From IMG/VR virus record IMGVR_UViG_2671180864_000008: DNA of 7,789 nt. One strand, 5' to 3'. Shown here in pieces: positions 1 to 7,789 of the stretch. Below the pieces are notes generated by a model. That model saw only the letters and a program-made list of their open reading frames with translations. It had not been told where the DNA came from and did no database searches. The DNA comes from a virus (taxonomy: Duplodnaviria > Heunggongvirae > Uroviricota > Caudoviricetes). The number at the start of each line of letters is the position of its first letter. Within the stretch, counting starts at the first letter, position 1. The position numbers and the translations under genes were made by a program.

Positions 1-126
1 ATTATCTGAACATAAAACACTATCAATAAGTTGGAGTCATTACCGATAAACTACAAGACGAGATATAAACCACCCTGCATTTAAATAAACAATAAACAAC
101 ATCAGAAAAATAATTCTGCTCTATGG

Positions 127-153
127 TTTACATTCAAAAATATCATTTATACT
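127..153 (+). promoter_or_regulatory. Candidate sigma70 promoter for ORF 194..529
   Basis: TTTACA (127-132), 15-nt spacer, TATACT (148-153), about 40 nt upstream of the ORF start. Motif match only; the spacer is shorter than the 17-nt optimum. Confidence 0.3.
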
Positions 154-193
154 TTTCAGAACATCACCAGCAAGGCATAAACAAGGAAACTAA

Positions 194-529
194 ATGAAGT
201 GGATTGTGATTGATACAGTTATCCAGCCATCATGCGGAATATCTTTTTCAGTCATATGGAGTAAAATAAAATTAATAATCTGGTATCAATCGGATGCTTT
301 CTTACCTCCTGAAAGTATATTTACACTGACTCACACAGGCATCATGCTCAATAACAAAGTGCTACCTGTAACCATTTACAACGTAGTACCATTCAATAAA
401 ACATTCTGGAATTCAATCAAAAATAGCCAGGAATGCCCTACAAATACAGATAACGTATTGAATGAATGCTTTAATAACCGTTGCACTCTGCAAATATGTC
501 CTTATGGACTAAAACAACAAAGTCCATAA
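194..529 (+). CDS. Hypothetical protein, 111 aa, AT-rich, Cys-containing C-terminus; possible moron/cargo gene
   Basis: ATG start with AAGGAA Shine-Dalgarno 6 nt upstream (184-189). A 336-nt open frame is unexpected by chance in AT-rich DNA. No family recognised. Confidence 0.3.
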
Positions 530-563
530 GGAGTTTACTCACATCTGACAAAATCAATATAAA

Positions 564-585
564 CAGCCCCTCCGGAGAGGGGCTG
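564..585 (-). terminator. GC-rich perfect hairpin, probable minus-strand (or bidirectional) intrinsic terminator
   Basis: 9-bp perfect stem CAGCCCCTC / GAGGGGCTG with CGGA loop. On the minus strand it is followed by TTTATATTGATTTTGT; on the plus strand there is no U-tract. Confidence 0.4.
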
Positions 586-695
586 GAGAGTGGCGCTATG
601 TGCCATTGCATGGTGCCGGGTGCCTCCCGGTGAATTCAGTACCAGCACCTGAATCCGCGATTATCCCATATACCTACTCGCTGATTGCCCCTCCG

Positions 696-874
696 CACAG
701 GGGGATTCACCATGCCAGTTTCTTTTAACAAACTCCCCGCAAAANNNNNNNNNNNNNNNNNNNNNNNNNNNNNNNNNNNNNNNNNNNNNNNNNNNNNNNN
801 NNNNNNNNNNNNNNNNNNNNNNNNNNCACAGGGGGATTCACCATGCCAGTTTCTTTTAACAAACTCCCCGCAAA
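696..874. repeat. Two identical 48-nt direct repeats (696-743 and 827-874) flanking an 82-nt run of N (745-826)
   Basis: CACAGGGGGATTCACCATGCCAGTTTCTTTTAACAAACTCCCCGCAAA occurs on both sides of the N run. Consistent with a scaffold gap between overlapping contig ends or a collapsed tandem repeat. Confidence 0.8.
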
Positions 875-1461: not shown

Positions 1462-1571
1462 TACTTAACAGAACTTTTATTTTTGACAAACATAAAATAT
1501 TTTCAACAATATCCTGAGCCAGGTATATTTCAGTATAAGGCTCTGCCGGAAGGAATCTGGAAGAATGAATA

Positions 1572-1648
1572 TGGCGCGCTGTACTGGATTCGAACCAGTG
1601 ACCGATTGCTTAGAAGGCAATTGCTCTGTCCGGCTGAGCTAACAACGC
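1572..1648 (-). tRNA. argO: tRNA-Arg, anticodon UCU
   Basis: Hand-folded 77-nt cloverleaf on the minus strand: acceptor GCGTTGT/ACAGCGC, anticodon loop CT-TCT-AA, T-arm ACTGG-TTCGAAT-CCAGT, 3' GCCA. Symbol assumed from the ileZ-argN-argO order I recall for 933W-like phages. Confidence 0.85.
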
Positions 1649-1661
1649 ATGATGCAGATAA

Positions 1662-1738
1662 TGGACCGCCATCGGGGACTTGAACCCCGCGCAGCCAGCT
1701 TCGAAGGCTGGCGCTCTTTCCTGATGAGCTAATGGCGG
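1662..1738 (-). tRNA. argN: tRNA-Arg, anticodon UCG
   Basis: Hand-folded 77-nt cloverleaf: acceptor CCGCCAT/ATGGCGG, anticodon stem CCAGC/GCTGG with loop CT-TCG-AA, T-arm CGGGG-TTCAAGT-CCCCG, 3' TCCA. Symbol assumed from gene order only. Confidence 0.8.
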
Positions 1739-1745
1739 TATGTGA

Positions 1746-1821
1746 TGGTGGCCCTTGCTGGATTTGAACCAGCGACCTGGCGATTATGAGTCGCTCGCTC
1801 TCACCACTGAGCTAAAGGGCC
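1746..1821 (-). tRNA. ileZ: tRNA-Ile2-like, anticodon CAU (lysidine type, ileX-like), or possibly tRNA-Met
   Basis: Hand-folded 76-nt cloverleaf: acceptor GGCCCTT/AAGGGCC, anticodon loop CT-CAT-AA, T-arm GCTGG-TTCAAAT-CCAGC, 3' ACCA. Strongly resembles E. coli ileX as I recall it. Confidence 0.85.
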
Positions 1822-1861
1822 GGGAGCCGCATAATAACGACGCGTAATTAATTCTTCAATA

Positions 1862-2920
1862 TCATCCGTTCTGGCTGACTAAATCCTGTACTTCCCGAAC
1901 CGTCTGCTCAAAACGTTCAGTCTCCAGCTCAACGCCAATTGCACGACGCCCGAGCGCCAGTGCCGCTTTCACTGTCGAACCCAACCCCATGAAAAAATCT
2001 GCAATCAGGTCACCCGGACGACTGCTAGCGCTGATTATCTGCTGCAGCATTTCTGCCGGTTTTTCGCACGGATGTTTCCCGGGATAGAACTGCACCGGTT
2101 TATGCGTCCACACATCGGTATACGGCACCTGCACCGTCACGCCAAAATACCGCCGCAGATGTTTATATTCACTCAGCAGCTCCGCATACTGCCGGTTCAG
2201 TGAGGTATACGTATCCACCAGCTGGTGGTGGAGCTTTTCCAGTTCACCACGCCGATGCTTCTCTTCTGCCACCCGGGCAAACAGCGCCTGTAATTTCAGA
2301 TAATCGCTTTCATTCGGCAACTGCCACTGACCGGCACTGAACCAGTGCGACACCATGTTTTTCTTTCCTGTGGCATCTGCAATCTGTTTTGCCGTTATCC
2401 CCAGGGCAGCTCGCGCATCACGAAAGTAAGAAATCAGCGGGGCCATCACATGCTGTTTCAGTGCACTGCCCTTCGCCGCATACCCGGCATCTTTCGGACG
2501 ATACGGCCCCTGATAATGTTCCGCGAACAGAATGCGCTCTGTGGCGGGGAAATACGCCCGCAGGCTTTCCTTGTTGCATCCGTTCCAGCGTCCGGACGGC
2601 TTCGCCCAGATAATATGGTTCAGCACACTGAAGCGTTCACGCATCATGATTTCGATATCAGATGCCAGGCGATGACCACAGAACAGGTAAAGACTTCCGG
2701 CAGGTTTCAGCACCCGCCAGAACTGCGCCAGACACTGGTCCAGCCACTTCAGGTAATCATCGTCGCCCTTCCACTGGTTATCCCAGCCCTCAGGCTTCAC
2801 TTTAAAGTACGGCGGGTCCGTGACTATCAGGTCAACAGAATTTTCGGGTAACGACCGGATAAATTCCAGGCAGTCGGCGTTGATTAACTCACAACTGGAT
2901 ATTTTTACAGTATTAAGCAT
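1862..2920 (-). CDS. DNA methyltransferase, N6-adenine/N4-cytosine family, beta-class motif order
   Basis: 352 aa with ATG start. DPPY (motif IV) near the N-terminus (TDPPYF) and an FxGxGST-type AdoMet motif near the C-terminus (DFFMGLGST). Position between Q and the tRNAs matches the phage Dam-like methylase of Stx2-type phages. Confidence 0.85.
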   Translation of the reverse strand: MLNTVKISSCELINADCLEFIRSLPENSVDLIVTDPPYFKVKPEGWDNQWKGDDDYLKWLDQCLAQFWRVLKPAGSLYLFCGHRLASDIEIMMRERFSVLNHIIWAKPSGRWNGCNKESLRAYFPATERILFAEHYQGPYRPKDAGYAAKGSALKQHVMAPLISYFRDARAALGITAKQIADATGKKNMVSHWFSAGQWQLPNESDYLKLQALFARVAEEKHRRGELEKLHHQLVDTYTSLNRQYAELLSEYKHLRRYFGVTVQVPYTDVWTHKPVQFYPGKHPCEKPAEMLQQIISASSRPGDLIADFFMGLGSTVKAALALGRRAIGVELETERFEQTVREVQDLVSQNG

Positions 2921-3014
2921 GGATCATTAAGCCTGTCTCTGATAGGCTCATTCTGCTTTTGCGCAAAGCAGTGGGCCTGAGGTTTGCTTGTGAACCCAAC
3001 GCATGAGCAGATGG

Positions 3015-3041
3015 CTGGTGGGTGCCCCTAACACCCACCAG
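3015..3041. promoter_or_regulatory. Perfect 10-bp inverted repeat (stem-loop or operator-like site) upstream of the methyltransferase gene
   Basis: CTGGTGGGTG - CCCCTAA - CACCCACCAG. Seen directly in the sequence; function unknown. Confidence 0.4.
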
Positions 3042-3054
3042 CCGCCCATTTACC

Positions 3055-3084
3055 ACAAATAAAAAAGCCTTCACTGCGGAAGGC
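3055..3084 (-). terminator. Intrinsic terminator after the 65-aa ORF
   Basis: Minus-strand hairpin GCCTTC-CGCAGT-GAAGGC followed by TTTTTTATTTG. It overlaps the stop codon of ORF 3071..3268. Confidence 0.6.
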
Positions 3085-3268
3085 GTCTGTAACAACCGAA
3101 CTGATAGTCTGCCAGACCCGCCATAACCAGCTGGGTCAGTATTAACTGGCAGCGTTCGCGTGAAAGGTAAGTATTCTGCGCTATCTCCCCGACTGTCGCC
3201 GGTTCGGTAACGCTTAATTCATTAAACACCACTCTGGCGGTTTCTGTCATATCCTGCTGTTTTAGCAT
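3071..3268 (-). CDS. Hypothetical small protein, 65 aa; first ORF of the Q-dependent late transcript
   Basis: ATG start with AAGGAA Shine-Dalgarno 6 nt upstream, followed by the terminator. Hydrophilic, so not a holin. No family recognised. Confidence 0.5.
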   Translation of the reverse strand: MLKQQDMTETARVVFNELSVTEPATVGEIAQNTYLSRERCQLILTQLVMAGLADYQFGCYRRLPQ

Positions 3269-3388
3269 GTCTTTTCCTTTTCCGGTTAACGTGACACACC
3301 AATAACTCTTGTCGAAAAAGCCAGCAAGCTGAAAGACAGGTATTCACCGCCACCAGCGCGTTTACTGTACTGACGCGATTTCAGTCAT

Positions 3389-3412
3389 AAAAAACCCGCT
3401 CGGCGGCGGGTT
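3389..3412 (-). terminator. tR'-like intrinsic terminator downstream of the late promoter
   Basis: Minus-strand GC-rich hairpin (AACCCGC-CGCCGA-GCGGGTT) followed by TTTTTT, about 65 nt downstream of the predicted late-promoter start site. Confidence 0.65.
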
Positions 3413-3444
3413 GTAGAAACTCTTCTAACGTCAGGCATAAAACG

Positions 3445-3487
3445 CCCATCGTTATGACGAATTTACCACAGATTCCGGAAAAATCAA
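3445..3487 (-). promoter_or_regulatory. Lambda PR'-like late promoter with sigma70-dependent pause element (candidate qut site)
   Basis: Minus strand reads TTGATT, 16-nt spacer, TGG-TAAATT (extended -10), then CGTCAT, then AACGATGGG. The TAAATT -10 and the AACGAT-GGG pause element at +1 match my recollection of lambda PR'. Lies directly after the Q stop codon. Confidence 0.7.
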
Positions 3488-3492
3488 CCTTG

Positions 3493-4314
3493 TTACCTAG
3501 TTACCTTTTTTAACTGCCGCTCAGCCCATGCTTCTTCAATATCAAACCGGGTCACCAGCGCATCATAAAATTTCTTAACTGTTTTTTCCCATGACGCGCG
3601 TGTTATCTGGTTTGTCACCTCGCATATAGCATTAAATGCCTCCGTTGATGGTAGTCTTTCATAGCCACGACCACCACAACGCTGGCAGTCTCTGATAACA
3701 GGCATACCACGTTTTACCGACTCTTCACGATGAATGGCGACACCACGCCCACGGCAATCCTTACAGGCGGTGGAAACCTCACCCTTTCCGCCACACTCCG
3801 GACAGGCAACTTTTACCACCTCCCTGACTTTTTTCCATTCTTCCCAGTAAGACGGATACACACCTTTCGTACACTTTGCCCATACCGGCGGCTTACCATC
3901 CGGATACTGGATCTTGTTTGTAAAAACCTCGCTTTCAATAAATTTTTTTCCGTGACAGCAGGGGCACTGTTTTTTGCTCGCCGCGCTACGGGCATAATCT
4001 TCAAACGCATACGAAGCCATAATACGCATCACTGCCGGTTTTATTTCTGCCGGGAGTTTTCTTAACGCCGCCACGCGATCACACCGACTGAGTGCATATT
4101 CTGTCAGCAATTCTGTTGCCCGCTCTCTGTCATTCATACTAATGCCCATTTTCCCAAGGAACGCAGAAACCCCCATCTCAGCCCGATTCTGTGTCATGCC
4201 CTGCGCGGCCATCACATCAGTGATACTCAGCGCATCTTTCGACGTTGAGGCCGATGCATCAGTCAGGCCGGGGGATTTTGGGGAGTAGTATTTCGGTAAA
4301 TCTTCCAGTTTCAT
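3493..4314 (-). CDS. Q: Late-gene antitermination protein Q, lambda-Q family, with expanded zinc-binding region
   Basis: 273 aa. N-terminus (KYYSPKSPGLTD... DVMAAQGM) and C-terminus (YDALVTRF... KKVTR) are colinear with phage lambda Q as recalled. Contains four CxxCxGxG-type motifs where lambda Q has two. Start ATG overlaps the rusA stop (ATGA). Confidence 0.85.
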   Translation of the reverse strand: MKLEDLPKYYSPKSPGLTDASASTSKDALSITDVMAAQGMTQNRAEMGVSAFLGKMGISMNDRERATELLTEYALSRCDRVAALRKLPAEIKPAVMRIMASYAFEDYARSAASKKQCPCCHGKKFIESEVFTNKIQYPDGKPPVWAKCTKGVYPSYWEEWKKVREVVKVACPECGGKGEVSTACKDCRGRGVAIHREESVKRGMPVIRDCQRCGGRGYERLPSTEAFNAICEVTNQITRASWEKTVKKFYDALVTRFDIEEAWAERQLKKVTR

Positions 4315-4691
4315 TTTTTGACCTGCTCTTCATGCATTATGGGGTAAATCTTCACCCCCAGACGTCCACCAGATACTGGCTGACCACGAACGATATTGAT
4401 TTCATCAAACTGCTCATCGTCCATTAGCAACCCCGCATGCGTCAGCGCATCCAGCGGCGCTTTCAGAATATTGTCCAGGTCACGGCGGCGCTTATCCGGT
4501 GGTTCTGCAATAATTTTTATTGCCAACCTTCCGGACAGGCTTAATTTCAGCCGCTGCTGGCGAACAATAAGCGCCACTGCCCGGCGATAACGCTCCCCGG
4601 CTTTTGATACAAAATATGTGCTGCCACGACGACGCCAGTAAGTGTTCACCGTCGGCGGGTAAGGTAAAACAAATTCTATGCGCTCGGTCAT
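4311..4691 (-). CDS. rusA: RusA-type Holliday junction resolvase
   Basis: 126 aa. Matches RusA as recalled, including the acidic motif PDKRRRDLDN and a following DD(E/A)Q. Located in the nin region upstream of Q, as in several lambdoid phages. Confidence 0.85.
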   Translation of the reverse strand: MTERIEFVLPYPPTVNTYWRRRGSTYFVSKAGERYRRAVALIVRQQRLKLSLSGRLAIKIIAEPPDKRRRDLDNILKAPLDALTHAGLLMDDEQFDEINIVRGQPVSGGRLGVKIYPIMHEEQVKK

Positions 4692-5750
4692 TTATGCTTT
4701 CCACTTCAGAACACCCGAATTTCTCGCGTGCATTAAAAAACGAATCAGCAACAACAGCTGACTGCCGTGTTTCTCTTCAAAATCTTTTACTCCGGCATGT
4801 AGTTCGTTACGGCATTTACGGCATAACGGAATAACAAACAAATCATCAGCCTTTGTTCCCATCCCTCCCAGTCCATGACCAATGATGTGATGCGGATCAT
4901 CTGCCTGATTGCCACACGTCATGCATTTCTGCGTTTTTACCCAGCGCGTGTATACAGGCATCTCTTCCCGTTGTGATTTCTGGCGCTGGAGATACTGAGC
5001 CGGTGACTCCGGATCAACGGCAATGCTGACCACCGTCTTTTCCTGTGGTGGGTTCTGTTGCTGGTGGACGTGAGGCAGTAACGCAATATTTTTTGTGCGC
5101 TGCTTCAGTATGCTGGTGGCTGTCTGCTCTCCCGGTATGATGTCGCTTTCACTGTACACAGAGCGAATTTTTTCCGCACGCAACCCCAGCGAACGACGTA
5201 ATACCGCTTCCGGTAGCGCGTCCGCCACCTGATTGCGGACCGCCCACCAGGATAATTCAGCCAGAGATAATTCACGCTCCTGCGTACCGCTTATTGCGTG
5301 ACCGATGACGTCAATCATCCATGCTGACAGGTTTTGATGAGCAAGTTGCTCGAGTGATTCGGATGTCTGGTCACGCAGCTGGTTGTCGCAGTGCCAGCAC
5401 AACACCATTGCGCCGGTACCATAACGGTGAATGACGGTTTCGCTGTGATGATAATCGCCGTGTGGCCACTGGCAGGATTTAATATGGCGCAACAGCCAGT
5501 CAGACAATGCACCAGCACCACCAGCAGCACGAATCACCCGTGCGTTACTGAAAAACGGCAGCAATGTTTTGTCTTCCACCAGCGGCTGGCGAGCGGCAGG
5601 AACGACCCCGGACGGCAGATTACGCATGCTTTTTGGTTCCGGCTCCACCAGTATTCTGCCGTTATGGAATGCTGACATTGATTCACGGCCTGGCTTAACG
5701 ATAACCAGACCGAGTTCCGGTACCAGAACAGGTCGAAGTAATACCCGCAC
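4692..5750 (-). CDS. YdfU-like DUF968 prophage protein with C-terminal HNH-like zinc-binding motif
   Basis: 352 aa, GTG start with GGAGG Shine-Dalgarno 4 nt upstream. N-terminus closely resembles E. coli Qin prophage YdfU as I recall it. C-terminal CMTCG...DPHHIIGHG...CRKCRNELH is an HNH-like arrangement. Confidence 0.7.
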   Translation of the reverse strand: MRVLLRPVLVPELGLVIVKPGRESMSAFHNGRILVEPEPKSMRNLPSGVVPAARQPLVEDKTLLPFFSNARVIRAAGGAGALSDWLLRHIKSCQWPHGDYHHSETVIHRYGTGAMVLCWHCDNQLRDQTSESLEQLAHQNLSAWMIDVIGHAISGTQERELSLAELSWWAVRNQVADALPEAVLRRSLGLRAEKIRSVYSESDIIPGEQTATSILKQRTKNIALLPHVHQQQNPPQEKTVVSIAVDPESPAQYLQRQKSQREEMPVYTRWVKTQKCMTCGNQADDPHHIIGHGLGGMGTKADDLFVIPLCRKCRNELHAGVKDFEEKHGSQLLLLIRFLMHARNSGVLKWKA

Positions 5751-5751
5751 A

Positions 5752-6030
5752 TTACCTCCAGATCCGTTGCTGGAATGTGCGGGACGGACGCGTTGGCCGT
5801 TCGGAGTAAGGGAGCCTGACGGAGATTATCCAGTGACGGTAGTCGAGGCTAAGGGCTTTTTTAACCTCGCATCCGCGCCTGCGGTAACACTGAATGAGCC
5901 ATTCGGCCTGTTCTTCAGTGCATGGGGGATGCTGGTACCAATCAGATTTAAATGCGTGAGAGCGCCGCCCGTGCCTGCTGGCAAAGACGGCTGAATTATC
6001 AGAATTGTGTAGTCTGGAATTTTGCGCCAT
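5752..6030 (-). CDS. Hypothetical nin-region protein, 92 aa
   Basis: ATG start with GGAGAAA Shine-Dalgarno. Stop is directly adjacent to the start of the downstream DUF968 gene. No family recognised. Confidence 0.5.
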   Translation of the reverse strand: MAQNSRLHNSDNSAVFASRHGRRSHAFKSDWYQHPPCTEEQAEWLIQCYRRRGCEVKKALSLDYRHWIISVRLPYSERPTRPSRTFQQRIWR

Positions 6031-6096
6031 CGGCTTTCTCCGGTGGCACAGTGTTACTCAACAGGGGTTCAGCCCTGCGCTGAATTGTAGATGAAT

Positions 6097-6357
6097 TCAC
6101 TCATCTTCAAAAGCAGAAAAACCAGCCTTAATCCCAGCTTCTTTCAGAGACGGCAACGATGTGACAAATTCATTTGCACGCGAAATAAAACCATCCGTCA
6201 CAAGCCCATCCACAAAATGAATTAACGCAGCTCCACTCTTCCTTTGTTGAGACTGTAAACATTTAATACGGCAGTGGCTGACAATAGCGCCATTCTCAAC
6301 GCGCACAGTATAGAGGCCATCTTCACTAAAAATTTCACGTAATTCTTCGATTTTCAT
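6097..6357 (-). CDS. Hypothetical small protein, 86 aa; position is reminiscent of rem in the Qin prophage
   Basis: The track ORF starts at a TTG (6360); the ATG at 6357 has a GGAAGGA Shine-Dalgarno 8 nt upstream. Identity as rem is not verified. Confidence 0.5.
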   Translation of the reverse strand: MKIEELREIFSEDGLYTVRVENGAIVSHCRIKCLQSQQRKSGAALIHFVDGLVTDGFISRANEFVTSLPSLKEAGIKAGFSAFEDE

Positions 6358-6439
6358 CAACAGAATCCTTCCAGATAAATAGCACTCCCCTGTTCGGGGT
6401 CCATCCCTCTTCTCCCTGCGCGCTACTTAAGTATTTTTG

Positions 6440-6469
6440 ATTCTATTCCGGCACCATCTAAAACTTCAA
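6440..6469 (-). promoter_or_regulatory. Candidate sigma70 promoter for the 6357..4311 gene block
   Basis: Minus strand TTGAAG, 18-nt spacer, TAGAAT, located between the hok terminator and the 86-aa ORF. Motif match only. Confidence 0.3.
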
Positions 6470-6476
6470 ACGCGTT

Positions 6477-6507
6477 GAAAATAAAAACAAAAACCCGCCG
6501 AAGCGGG
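6477..6507 (-). terminator. Intrinsic terminator of the hok transcript
   Basis: Minus strand CCCGC-TTCG-GCGGG followed by TTTTTGTTTTTATTTT. Confidence 0.75.
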
Positions 6508-6577
6508 TTAAGTGTGGGTGCATTGAGGATGCCTGACCCATCAGAGGTGGCGAGGGATTTCTCCCCCGCCTGGTCTC

Positions 6578-6733
6578 TTACTCCTCAGGTTCGTAAGCTG
6601 TGAAGACAGCGACCTCCGTCTGGCCGGTTCGAATTCGTACCTCGCAGAGGTCTTTCCTCGTTACCAGTGCCGTCACTATGACGGTTAAACAGATGACGAT
6701 CAGGGCGATTAACATCGCCTTTTGCTGCTTCAT
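6578..6733 (-). CDS. hokD: Hok/Gef-family type I toxin, 51 aa
   Basis: Translation from the internal ATG at 6733 (MKQQKAMLIALIVICLTVIVTALVTRKDLCEVRIRTGQTEVAVFTAYEPEE) matches HokD/RelF as I recall it. AAGGAG Shine-Dalgarno upstream. The track ORF extends in frame to an ATG at 6790 (70 aa). Confidence 0.85.
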   Translation of the reverse strand: MKQQKAMLIALIVICLTVIVTALVTRKDLCEVRIRTGQTEVAVFTAYEPEE

Positions 6734-6885
6734 AGCCTGCTTCTCCTTGCCTTTCGGCACGTAAGAGGCTAACCTAGATTTGCCGTTCATAGATTGAGCC
6801 TCAGATTAATGTTAAGCGTCTTGCCGGACGCGTAATGTTAACTGGGGCTTTTCTCTATCTGCCTTTTGGTGTTCATGCCTGAGAC

Positions 6886-6915
6886 AGATAGCCTCAAGCA
6901 CCCGCTGCAATTCTA
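6886..6915 (-). promoter_or_regulatory. Candidate hok promoter -10 (TAGAAT) and 5' tac-like element of the hok mRNA
   Basis: Minus strand TAGAAT at 6915..6910. The mRNA 5' segment GGGTGCTTGAGG (about 6898..6887) is complementary to the 3' segment CCTCAATGCACCC (about 6531..6519), consistent with the fbi/tac fold-back typical of hok mRNAs. Confidence 0.4.
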
Positions 6916-7024
6916 CTTAACTCTCCTTTTCCCGCAAACCGTTTTTATCCCCAGCGGCAAATCGAATACACCACCAGCGCCACCGCCATCGCAATTCCTA
7001 CCGTTGTTAATGCTTCAGGCCAGG

Positions 7025-7369
7025 TCATCGTAAAATATCCTCCACGCTTATCAGTCCGTTCCGCTCCAGATAACTCATCGCCTTATCCGGTAATTTGCAG
7101 TCTGGCTTCGCTTTCCTCAGTTGCCAGGTTAACTGCTTTACCAGCATGGTTAACTCATCGACCAGACGCTGATATCCCACTGGTTTGTATTCATGCAATT
7201 TACCGGCTGGCTCTGCTGCCAGCGATACCAGTGCGATTTCCAGAACAGCAATATCCATCTTATATGTGCGGATGATGTCATGGTCGATTGTGCCCGGTAT
7301 GCACAGTCTCTGTGCTTCAATAGTCTCCTCTGCGTGAGCTATTAACTGCTCTCTGGTAAAAGTCGTCAT
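7025..7369 (-). CDS. Hypothetical protein, 114 aa; paralog of the upstream 55-aa ORF
   Basis: ATG start overlapping the upstream stop (ATGA), Shine-Dalgarno GGGG. Shares the N-terminal MTTxT(K/R)E(R/Q) and the internal IAL(A/V)SL(E/A)AEP motif with ORF 7366..7533. Confidence 0.5.
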
Positions 7370-7533
7370 GCCGTAGCCCCTTCTTGATATTTTTCAAACC
7401 AGAACACAACCGGCTCTGCTTCCAGCGATGCCAGCGCAATCCGTGCCAGTTCCATTTGTTCACCACGGGTAAGCCCGTTTTCAAGCGGGTTTTTAATGAA
7501 CAATTCAATACGTTCTTTGGTAATAGTGGTCAT
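7366..7533 (-). CDS. Hypothetical small protein, 55 aa (not in the supplied ORF track)
   Basis: Translated by hand: [61 protein letters not shown] Shine-Dalgarno 6 nt upstream of the ATG at 7533. Stop TGA overlaps the ATG of the next gene. Confidence 0.5.
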
Positions 7534-7543
7534 GTGTTACTCC

Positions 7544-7789
7544 TTAACCCGCAGTGCTTTCAACTGATGAGGGGAACAAAATCTTTTCATCAAACCCTGC
7601 ATTCATATCATGAACAGCAACACACCAATCCATCGACGAACGATTATCAAGAGCCTCCATGATTTCATCCATGCGGCGTAGGTCATACAGGTAAATGCTT
7701 TTATCGCCAATGGTGTAAAAGCCAATTTTTTTCGGTGATGGATGAGGTGTACTGGCAATAGCGGACACTACCATTTGTTCTTTTTTTAA
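7544..7789 (-). CDS. Hypothetical protein, probably 5'-truncated by the window edge
   Basis: Open frame continues without a stop to the window end (in-frame LKKEQ upstream of the ATG at 7774, which has no convincing Shine-Dalgarno). Stop at 7544. Confidence 0.4.
   Translation of the reverse strand, partial: LKKEQMVVSAIASTPHPSPKKIGFYTIGDKSIYLYDLRRMDEIMEALDNRSSMDWCVAVHDMNAGFDEKILFPSSVESTAG

Follow-up and report, generated by a model that had tools for sequence, protein, structure and literature searches.

The question raised by this locus is whether a short AT-rich reading frame that faces the late genes of a phage genome is a real gene and, if so, what it encodes. The window, i.e., the whole 7,789-nt stretch of DNA that was analysed (IMG/VR record IMGVR_UViG_2671180864_000008, Caudoviricetes), had been described from its letters as carrying an AT-rich 111-aa ORF with TTTACA-15-TATACT and AAGGAA signals upstream, and each of these elements was confirmed in its place (Table 1). 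The GC content of the ORF is 34.5% (GC3 33%), as compared to 50.2% at 1500-7789; the whole region 45-560 has a GC content of 32.9%, while the adjacent phage genes range from 49 to 53%. The comparison with the rest of the prophage, which had been proposed as a check, thus indicates a foreign base composition.

Table 1. Features of the window and of the related loci. Positions refer to the window unless another locus (L) is given.
Feature	Position	Strand	Description
IS1 right end	1-44	+	Last 44 nt (right inverted repeat), with the transposase frame directed toward iraL
iraL sigma-70 promoter	127-153	+	−35 TTTACA at 127-132, 15-nt spacer, −10 TATACT at 148-153
iraL 5′ UTR	161-193	+	Start at A161; Shine-Dalgarno AAGGAA at 183-188, with 5 nt between it and the ATG
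iraL coding sequence	194-529	+	ATG start; 111-aa RssB anti-adaptor, L74S allele
12-bp perfect inverted repeat	499-531	+	CCTTATGGACTA...AGTCCATAAGG; extends over the final codons of iraL and its stop
Predicted STnc100-family prophage sRNA gene	555-744	−	Rfam RF02076, 133.6 bits vs. gathering score 47, full model 1-206
GC-rich hairpin	564-585	−	9 pairs, 7 of them G-C; CAGCCCCTCtccgGAGGGGCTG then TTTATATTGATTTTG
Scaffolding artefact	745-874		82 N (745-826), then a 48-nt repeat of 696-743 (827-874)
DUF3927 gene	941-1072	−	
117-aa ORF	1108-1461	−	Between the tRNAs and DUF3927
Three tRNA genes	1572-1821	−	Arg-tct, Arg-tcg and a CAT-anticodon tRNA annotated as Ile in relatives; downstream of Q
DNA methylase	1862-2920	−	
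Q antiterminator	3493-4314	−	
DUF968 protein, then RusA		−	After hok/sok and before Q in transcription order
hok/sok	6578-6903	−	hok/mok toxin ORF (Pfam HOK_GEF) and overlapping sok antisense RNA (RF01794, 112 bits)
STnc100 at paired loci	L003 23251-23440; L007 8362-8551; L014 6475-6650; L013 6350-6561		
Third IraM-family lineage (WP_001303568.1)	L013 6016-6339		107 aa; E. coli O157:H7 146N4, Stx2c prophage

As a small RNA gene abuts the ORF, we considered whether the frame is open merely by chance and the real feature is an RNA only, e.g., an antisense or 3′ partner of the STnc100 sRNA. At the local base composition the probability of a stop is 0.072 per codon, giving P = 2.5 × 10−4 for 111 open codons, and an ATG-initiated ORF of at least 111 aa occurred in one of 2000 shuffles of 45-560. 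A dN/dS of about 0.1-0.17 across clades with 59-75% amino acid identity also speaks against this explanation, as does the existence of both a solved homologue structure and a purified, tagged IraL protein, and its probability is vanishingly small.

By homology, the ORF is iraL, the prophage-borne member of the IraM/IraL/RssC anti-adaptor family and an already known gene. The NCBIfam model NF007393 scored 162 bits against a cut-off of 121, with residues 1-110 aligned on model positions 1-113 of 114. A search of PDB sequences identified the IraM chain 8twd_A, aligned without gaps over residues 1-78 (E = 6.3 × 10−31), and a megablast search of complete E. coli genomes with 1-740 led to a gene annotated as "anti-adapter protein IraM". 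The number of records matched by the sequence search (8903) is due to the IS1-end bases 1-44 being part of the query. The iraL gene of the uropathogenic E. coli CFT073 was described by Hryckowian et al. 2014 in mBio (PMC4045071), where a gene counts as iraL if its nucleotide identity to the entire CFT073 coding region is 95% or more. Along its full length, the present gene is identical to that of CFT073 (WP_000871291.1) at 334 of 336 nt, which is within the definition, and at 110 of 111 amino acids, L74S being the sole change. Its amino acid identity to K-12 IraM is 58.6% (58.9% for IraL and IraM according to PMC4045071), with about 70% nucleotide identity to K-12 iraM. The statement of the preliminary description that no family was recognised was therefore wrong: the NCBIfam, PDB and CFT073 comparisons all identify a characterised RssB anti-adaptor.

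Current Pfam gave no family for the ORF at either E ≤ 0.01 or E ≤ 10, which may be one reason why the family is easily missed; a match to Nairovirus NSm (E = 0.056) was dismissed as meaningless. The current PmrD model (PF11183) likewise had no match at E ≤ 10. The precomputed annotation of a protein collection assigns PF11183 to the exact protein, presumably from an older version of the Pfam model.

The transcript start of CFT073 iraL has been mapped by 5′ RACE, with the 5′ end reported as ACATCACCAGCAAGGCATAAACAAGGAAAC(CA) and given in full as 5′-ACATCACCAGCAAGGCATAAACAAGGAAACCA; −10 and −35 elements are predicted upstream of it, and this sigma-70 start is used in log-phase lysogens (PMC4045071). 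The published end matches positions 161-190 of the window exactly, and a SNP at 191 is the sole difference within 32 nt. The −10 element ends 8 nt upstream of the mapped start. Of the 149 nt preceding the gene (45-193), 147 are identical to CFT073, above the 96% used for assigning an iraL upstream region, with differences at 160 and 191. As judged from this comparison, the TTTACA-15-TATACT pair is the published iraL sigma-70 promoter. The promoter match alone is within chance, as 1-1900 contains 7 promoter-like sites vs. 4.9 ± 2.3 in shuffles, and the spacer of 15 nt is sub-optimal. Because this spacer is outside the 16-18 nt range of our consensus scan, the scan omitted the iraL promoter; it neither supports nor contradicts the assignment, the validation of which is the published 5′ RACE start. 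A fragment from −100 to +33 plus iraL is known to complement the deletion and restore RpoS stability (PMC4045071), and the equivalent of this fragment (61-193) is intact in the window.

In CFT073, iraL has a sigma-70 promoter of its own, from which it is transcribed in the exponential growth of the lysogen, and the protein co-purifies with RssB, binding in the two-hybrid assay to the N-terminal receiver domain only (PMC4045071). IraL raises both the level and the half-life of the stress sigma factor RpoS in log phase, and its deletion lowers log-phase RpoS in CFT073 and Shigella sonnei, the half-life of RpoS being halved (PMC4045071). In the crystal structure of IraM with RssB, the N-terminal 78 residues of IraM form a PmrD-like beta-barrel, with an r.m.s.d. 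of about 1 Å to the PmrD fold of PDB 4HN7, that packs against the RssB receiver at its alpha4-beta5-alpha5 face, keeping RpoS out (PMC10844676). The same N-terminal barrel is predicted for the IraL of the window. All five RssB receiver contacts of cluster I (I4, I6, W22, K26, and I42) are identical in it, as are three of the five positions in cluster II (T13S and L75I being the changes) and two of the four in cluster III (H63N and I64V), while P66 is kept. [quoted passage not shown] By analogy with the IraM-RssB complex, the N-terminal 78 residues of IraL would form a barrel docking on the RssB receiver, RpoS would be excluded from RssB, and RssB could then not hand RpoS to ClpXP. If functional, the present copy would give its host a constitutively elevated level of RpoS in log phase.

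The PmrD-like fold of the IraM N-terminal domain and the precomputed PF11183 label could also be taken to mean that the protein is a PmrD-like connector acting on another response regulator, e.g., PmrA, with RpoS stabilisation as a secondary effect. We regard this as very improbable, in view of the lack of a match to the current PmrD model at E ≤ 10, the co-purification of IraL with RssB and its effect on the half-life of RpoS, and the full conservation of the RssB-receiver contact residues. The best explanation of the locus as a whole is, with high probability, a functional iraL encoding an RssB anti-adaptor that stabilises RpoS and is carried as a moron by a lambdoid prophage. The window retains, intact, the coding sequence together with the mapped start and the −100 to +33 fragment, with no frameshift or stop.

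K-12 IraM (YcgW/ElbA; structure 8TWD with RssB, PMC10844676) belongs to the same family NF007393, aligns with IraL without gaps over the N-terminal 78 residues and shares its four C-terminal cysteines, while IraL has four extra C-terminal residues. The two genes differ in their control: IraM is induced by Mg2+ starvation via PhoP/PhoQ, whereas the iraL promoter is of the sigma-70 type, constitutive-looking and active in log phase, and the upstream regions cannot be aligned. They also differ in that IraM binds both RssB domains and IraL the N-terminal one only. The third member of the iraL-iraM-rssC family, RssC of Salmonella, has about 49% identity to iraL (PMC4045071).

The preliminary description had also noted a GC-rich hairpin between the ORF and the converging minus-strand transcription. 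The hairpin exists, but it belongs, as a terminator, to a convergent gene of an STnc100-family sRNA, the 3′ end of which and the iraL stop are separated by 25 nt. The T-run of the hairpin is found on the minus strand, and a terminator-like call was obtained on that strand only. The hairpin corresponds in the alignment to the last stem of the Rfam STnc100 model, is followed by the U-tail, and is kept in the iraL, RM9088 and O157 variants. From this alignment, it is predicted to act as an intrinsic terminator, both for STnc100 and for minus-strand read-through that is not antiterminated. A role as iraL's own terminator was rejected, with the T-run on the other strand and the stem being the terminal stem of STnc100: on the plus strand the stem is followed by GAGAGTGG, which does not make a canonical terminator for iraL, and the terminator scan found no canonical intrinsic terminator 3′ of iraL on this strand.

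The perfect inverted repeat at the end of iraL could, when folded, form an RNA hairpin at the 3′ end of the transcript, and its second arm encodes the four extra C-terminal residues of IraL relative to IraM. It was rejected as a conserved 3′ element, as it is degenerate in the RM9088 variant, and is probably neither conserved nor functional. No convincing sigma-70 promoter for STnc100 was found in the contiguous CFT073 sequence. In the window, the 5′ part of the sRNA gene is interrupted by the N-run and the duplicate listed in Table 1, while CFT073 is contiguous across the equivalent sequence; we therefore consider the interruption an artefact of scaffold joining, not biology.

In CFT073 (prophage at potB/potC) and 042, iraL is located between Q, the tRNAs and DUF3927 on one side and a DUF1737 fragment, holin, lysozyme, and Rz on the other, and on the opposite strand. 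It is thus embedded antisense in the late region, in the Q-to-S interval that also holds stx. In the intact relatives, iraL is inside the late region and not at its end. Being antisense to late transcription, iraL, unlike stx, would get no boost from Q-dependent read-through. A tRNA cluster downstream of Q is also present in Stx and other lambdoid phages.

The gene lies between phage genes, has a foreign composition and its own mapped start, and occurs in some lambdoid prophages and not in others, as expected of a moron. The classical lambdoid morons bor, lom, and stx are likewise of foreign composition, have their own promoters, lie between phage genes, and are expressed in the lysogen. The core of the preliminary reading, a horizontally acquired gene expressed from its own promoter independently of the phage, is upheld by the many prophage architectures in which the gene is found together with the foreign composition and the 5′ RACE start.

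CFT073 and the window share the iraL promoter, start and Shine-Dalgarno, the flanking STnc100 and DUF3927, and the slot between Q/tRNAs and the lysis cassette. Their backbones differ, the window having a DNA methylase and a 117-aa ORF between Q and iraL. The 117-aa ORF has neither a Pfam nor an NCBIfam match and is missing at this place in CFT073 and 042. The window further differs from CFT073 by L74S, by the two upstream SNPs (160 and 191) and by IS1 in place of the lysis genes. In its early-right region, the prophage carries a type I toxin-antitoxin locus, hok/sok (Table 1).

Bases 1-44 match the right end of IS1 exactly. IS1 ends at −117 from the iraL start, and native sequence is retained from −116, so that regulatory sites further upstream, if any, have been lost. 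The prophage is defective, and IS1 replaces DUF1737, the holin and the lysis genes upstream of iraL. A scan of genome contigs gave no match to the exact IS1/iraL junction pattern. In E. coli JCC-EE 7, an annotated IS1 transposase is situated immediately upstream of iraL and the lysis genes are gone (L004, about 8990-9045). There the junction is offset by 4 nt and the IS1 variant is different, indicating independent insertions in nearly the same AT-rich spot.

These features could suggest that the gene is iraL by descent but silent or decaying, in a prophage remnant that has lost the upstream DNA to IS1 and whose IraL is weakened by L74S. Both the IS1 end and the missing lysis genes are compatible with such decay, and the Leu lost in L74S is present in each of the four other clades and adjoins the IraM contact residue L75. 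On the other hand, the promoter fragment sufficient for complementation (−100 to +33) is intact, the frame has neither a frameshift nor a stop, and the allele is very widespread: the collection has 4016 index blocks with the exact L74S protein, S. sonnei 53G being among the places read, and the protein is intact in all eight of the loci fetched. In addition, deletion of iraL lowers RpoS in S. sonnei, whichever allele that strain carried. We consider decay of the gene quite improbable and retain the functional iraL as the explanation.

The conservation of the gene agrees with this choice. No disruption of the frame was seen among the 13 copies examined (the window, CFT073, 042, JCC-EE 7, the eight L74S loci, and RM9088) or in the O157 and K-12 relatives, so that neither of the findings that would have spoken against a real gene, a lack of conservation or a broken frame, was made. 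Comparison of the more divergent clades gives a dN/dS of 0.10-0.17, and that of the closest pair, CFT073/RM9088, a value of 0.36. Of 5426 complete E. coli genomes, 1441 contain 80% or more of window positions 100-600, while a further about 3300 complete E. coli genomes have an iraM-type gene only, with about 70% identity. Four isolated phages, vB_EcoS-640R1 and its relatives, carry the gene, where it is annotated as "anti-adapter protein".

In every prophage-borne clade examined, the iraL-family gene and STnc100 are arranged tail to tail, with their 3′ ends 10-44 nt apart. Outside the window, the pairing was seen in four loci, i.e., CFT073, S. sonnei 53G, the 90%-identical variant of RM9088, and a 77%-identical paralogue in the Stx2c phage of O157:H7; STnc100 is absent beside K-12 iraM. 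In the O157:H7 phage, the iraM-like/STnc100 pair comes directly after stx2B (compare PMC12370729). The O157:H7 protein (WP_001303568.1) has 74.8% amino acid identity to IraL and 65.4% to IraM, with a dN/dS of 0.12. Its gene occupies the same antisense late-region slot, right after stx2B and before a SASA/nanS-p-type esterase gene, and its promoter region has diverged from that of iraL. No characterisation of this paralogue was found in the literature searched. The linkage of iraL and STnc100 was likewise not found described there, and a 2026 preprint that deals with prophage sRNAs, STnc100 among them, mentions neither IraM nor IraL.

The conserved pairing, seen in four divergent clades, raises the idea that iraL and STnc100 are not a simple independent moron with a neighbour but a tail-to-tail module forming a switch on host RpoS that is coupled to lysogeny and lysis. 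In the lysogen, the sRNA terminator would shield iraL from late or upstream transcription that is not antiterminated. On induction, Q-modified read-through would cross iraL in the antisense direction and turn off the RpoS stabiliser, and iraL read-through, meeting no terminator on the plus strand, would in turn be antisense to the sRNA. We regard such a switch as an unlikely, speculative extension of the functional iraL proposed above.

For annotation, an ORF that would be listed as unknown and AT-rich is by its homology a characterised regulator, which is called "IraM" by current pipelines and goes undetected by the Pfam models now in use. What may be new to the literature is solely the conserved pairing of iraL with STnc100 in the lambdoid phage slot that holds stx. 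For the host, IraL accounts for the high level of RpoS during exponential growth in some pathogenic E. coli and Shigella, with a bearing on stress anticipation and niche adaptation.
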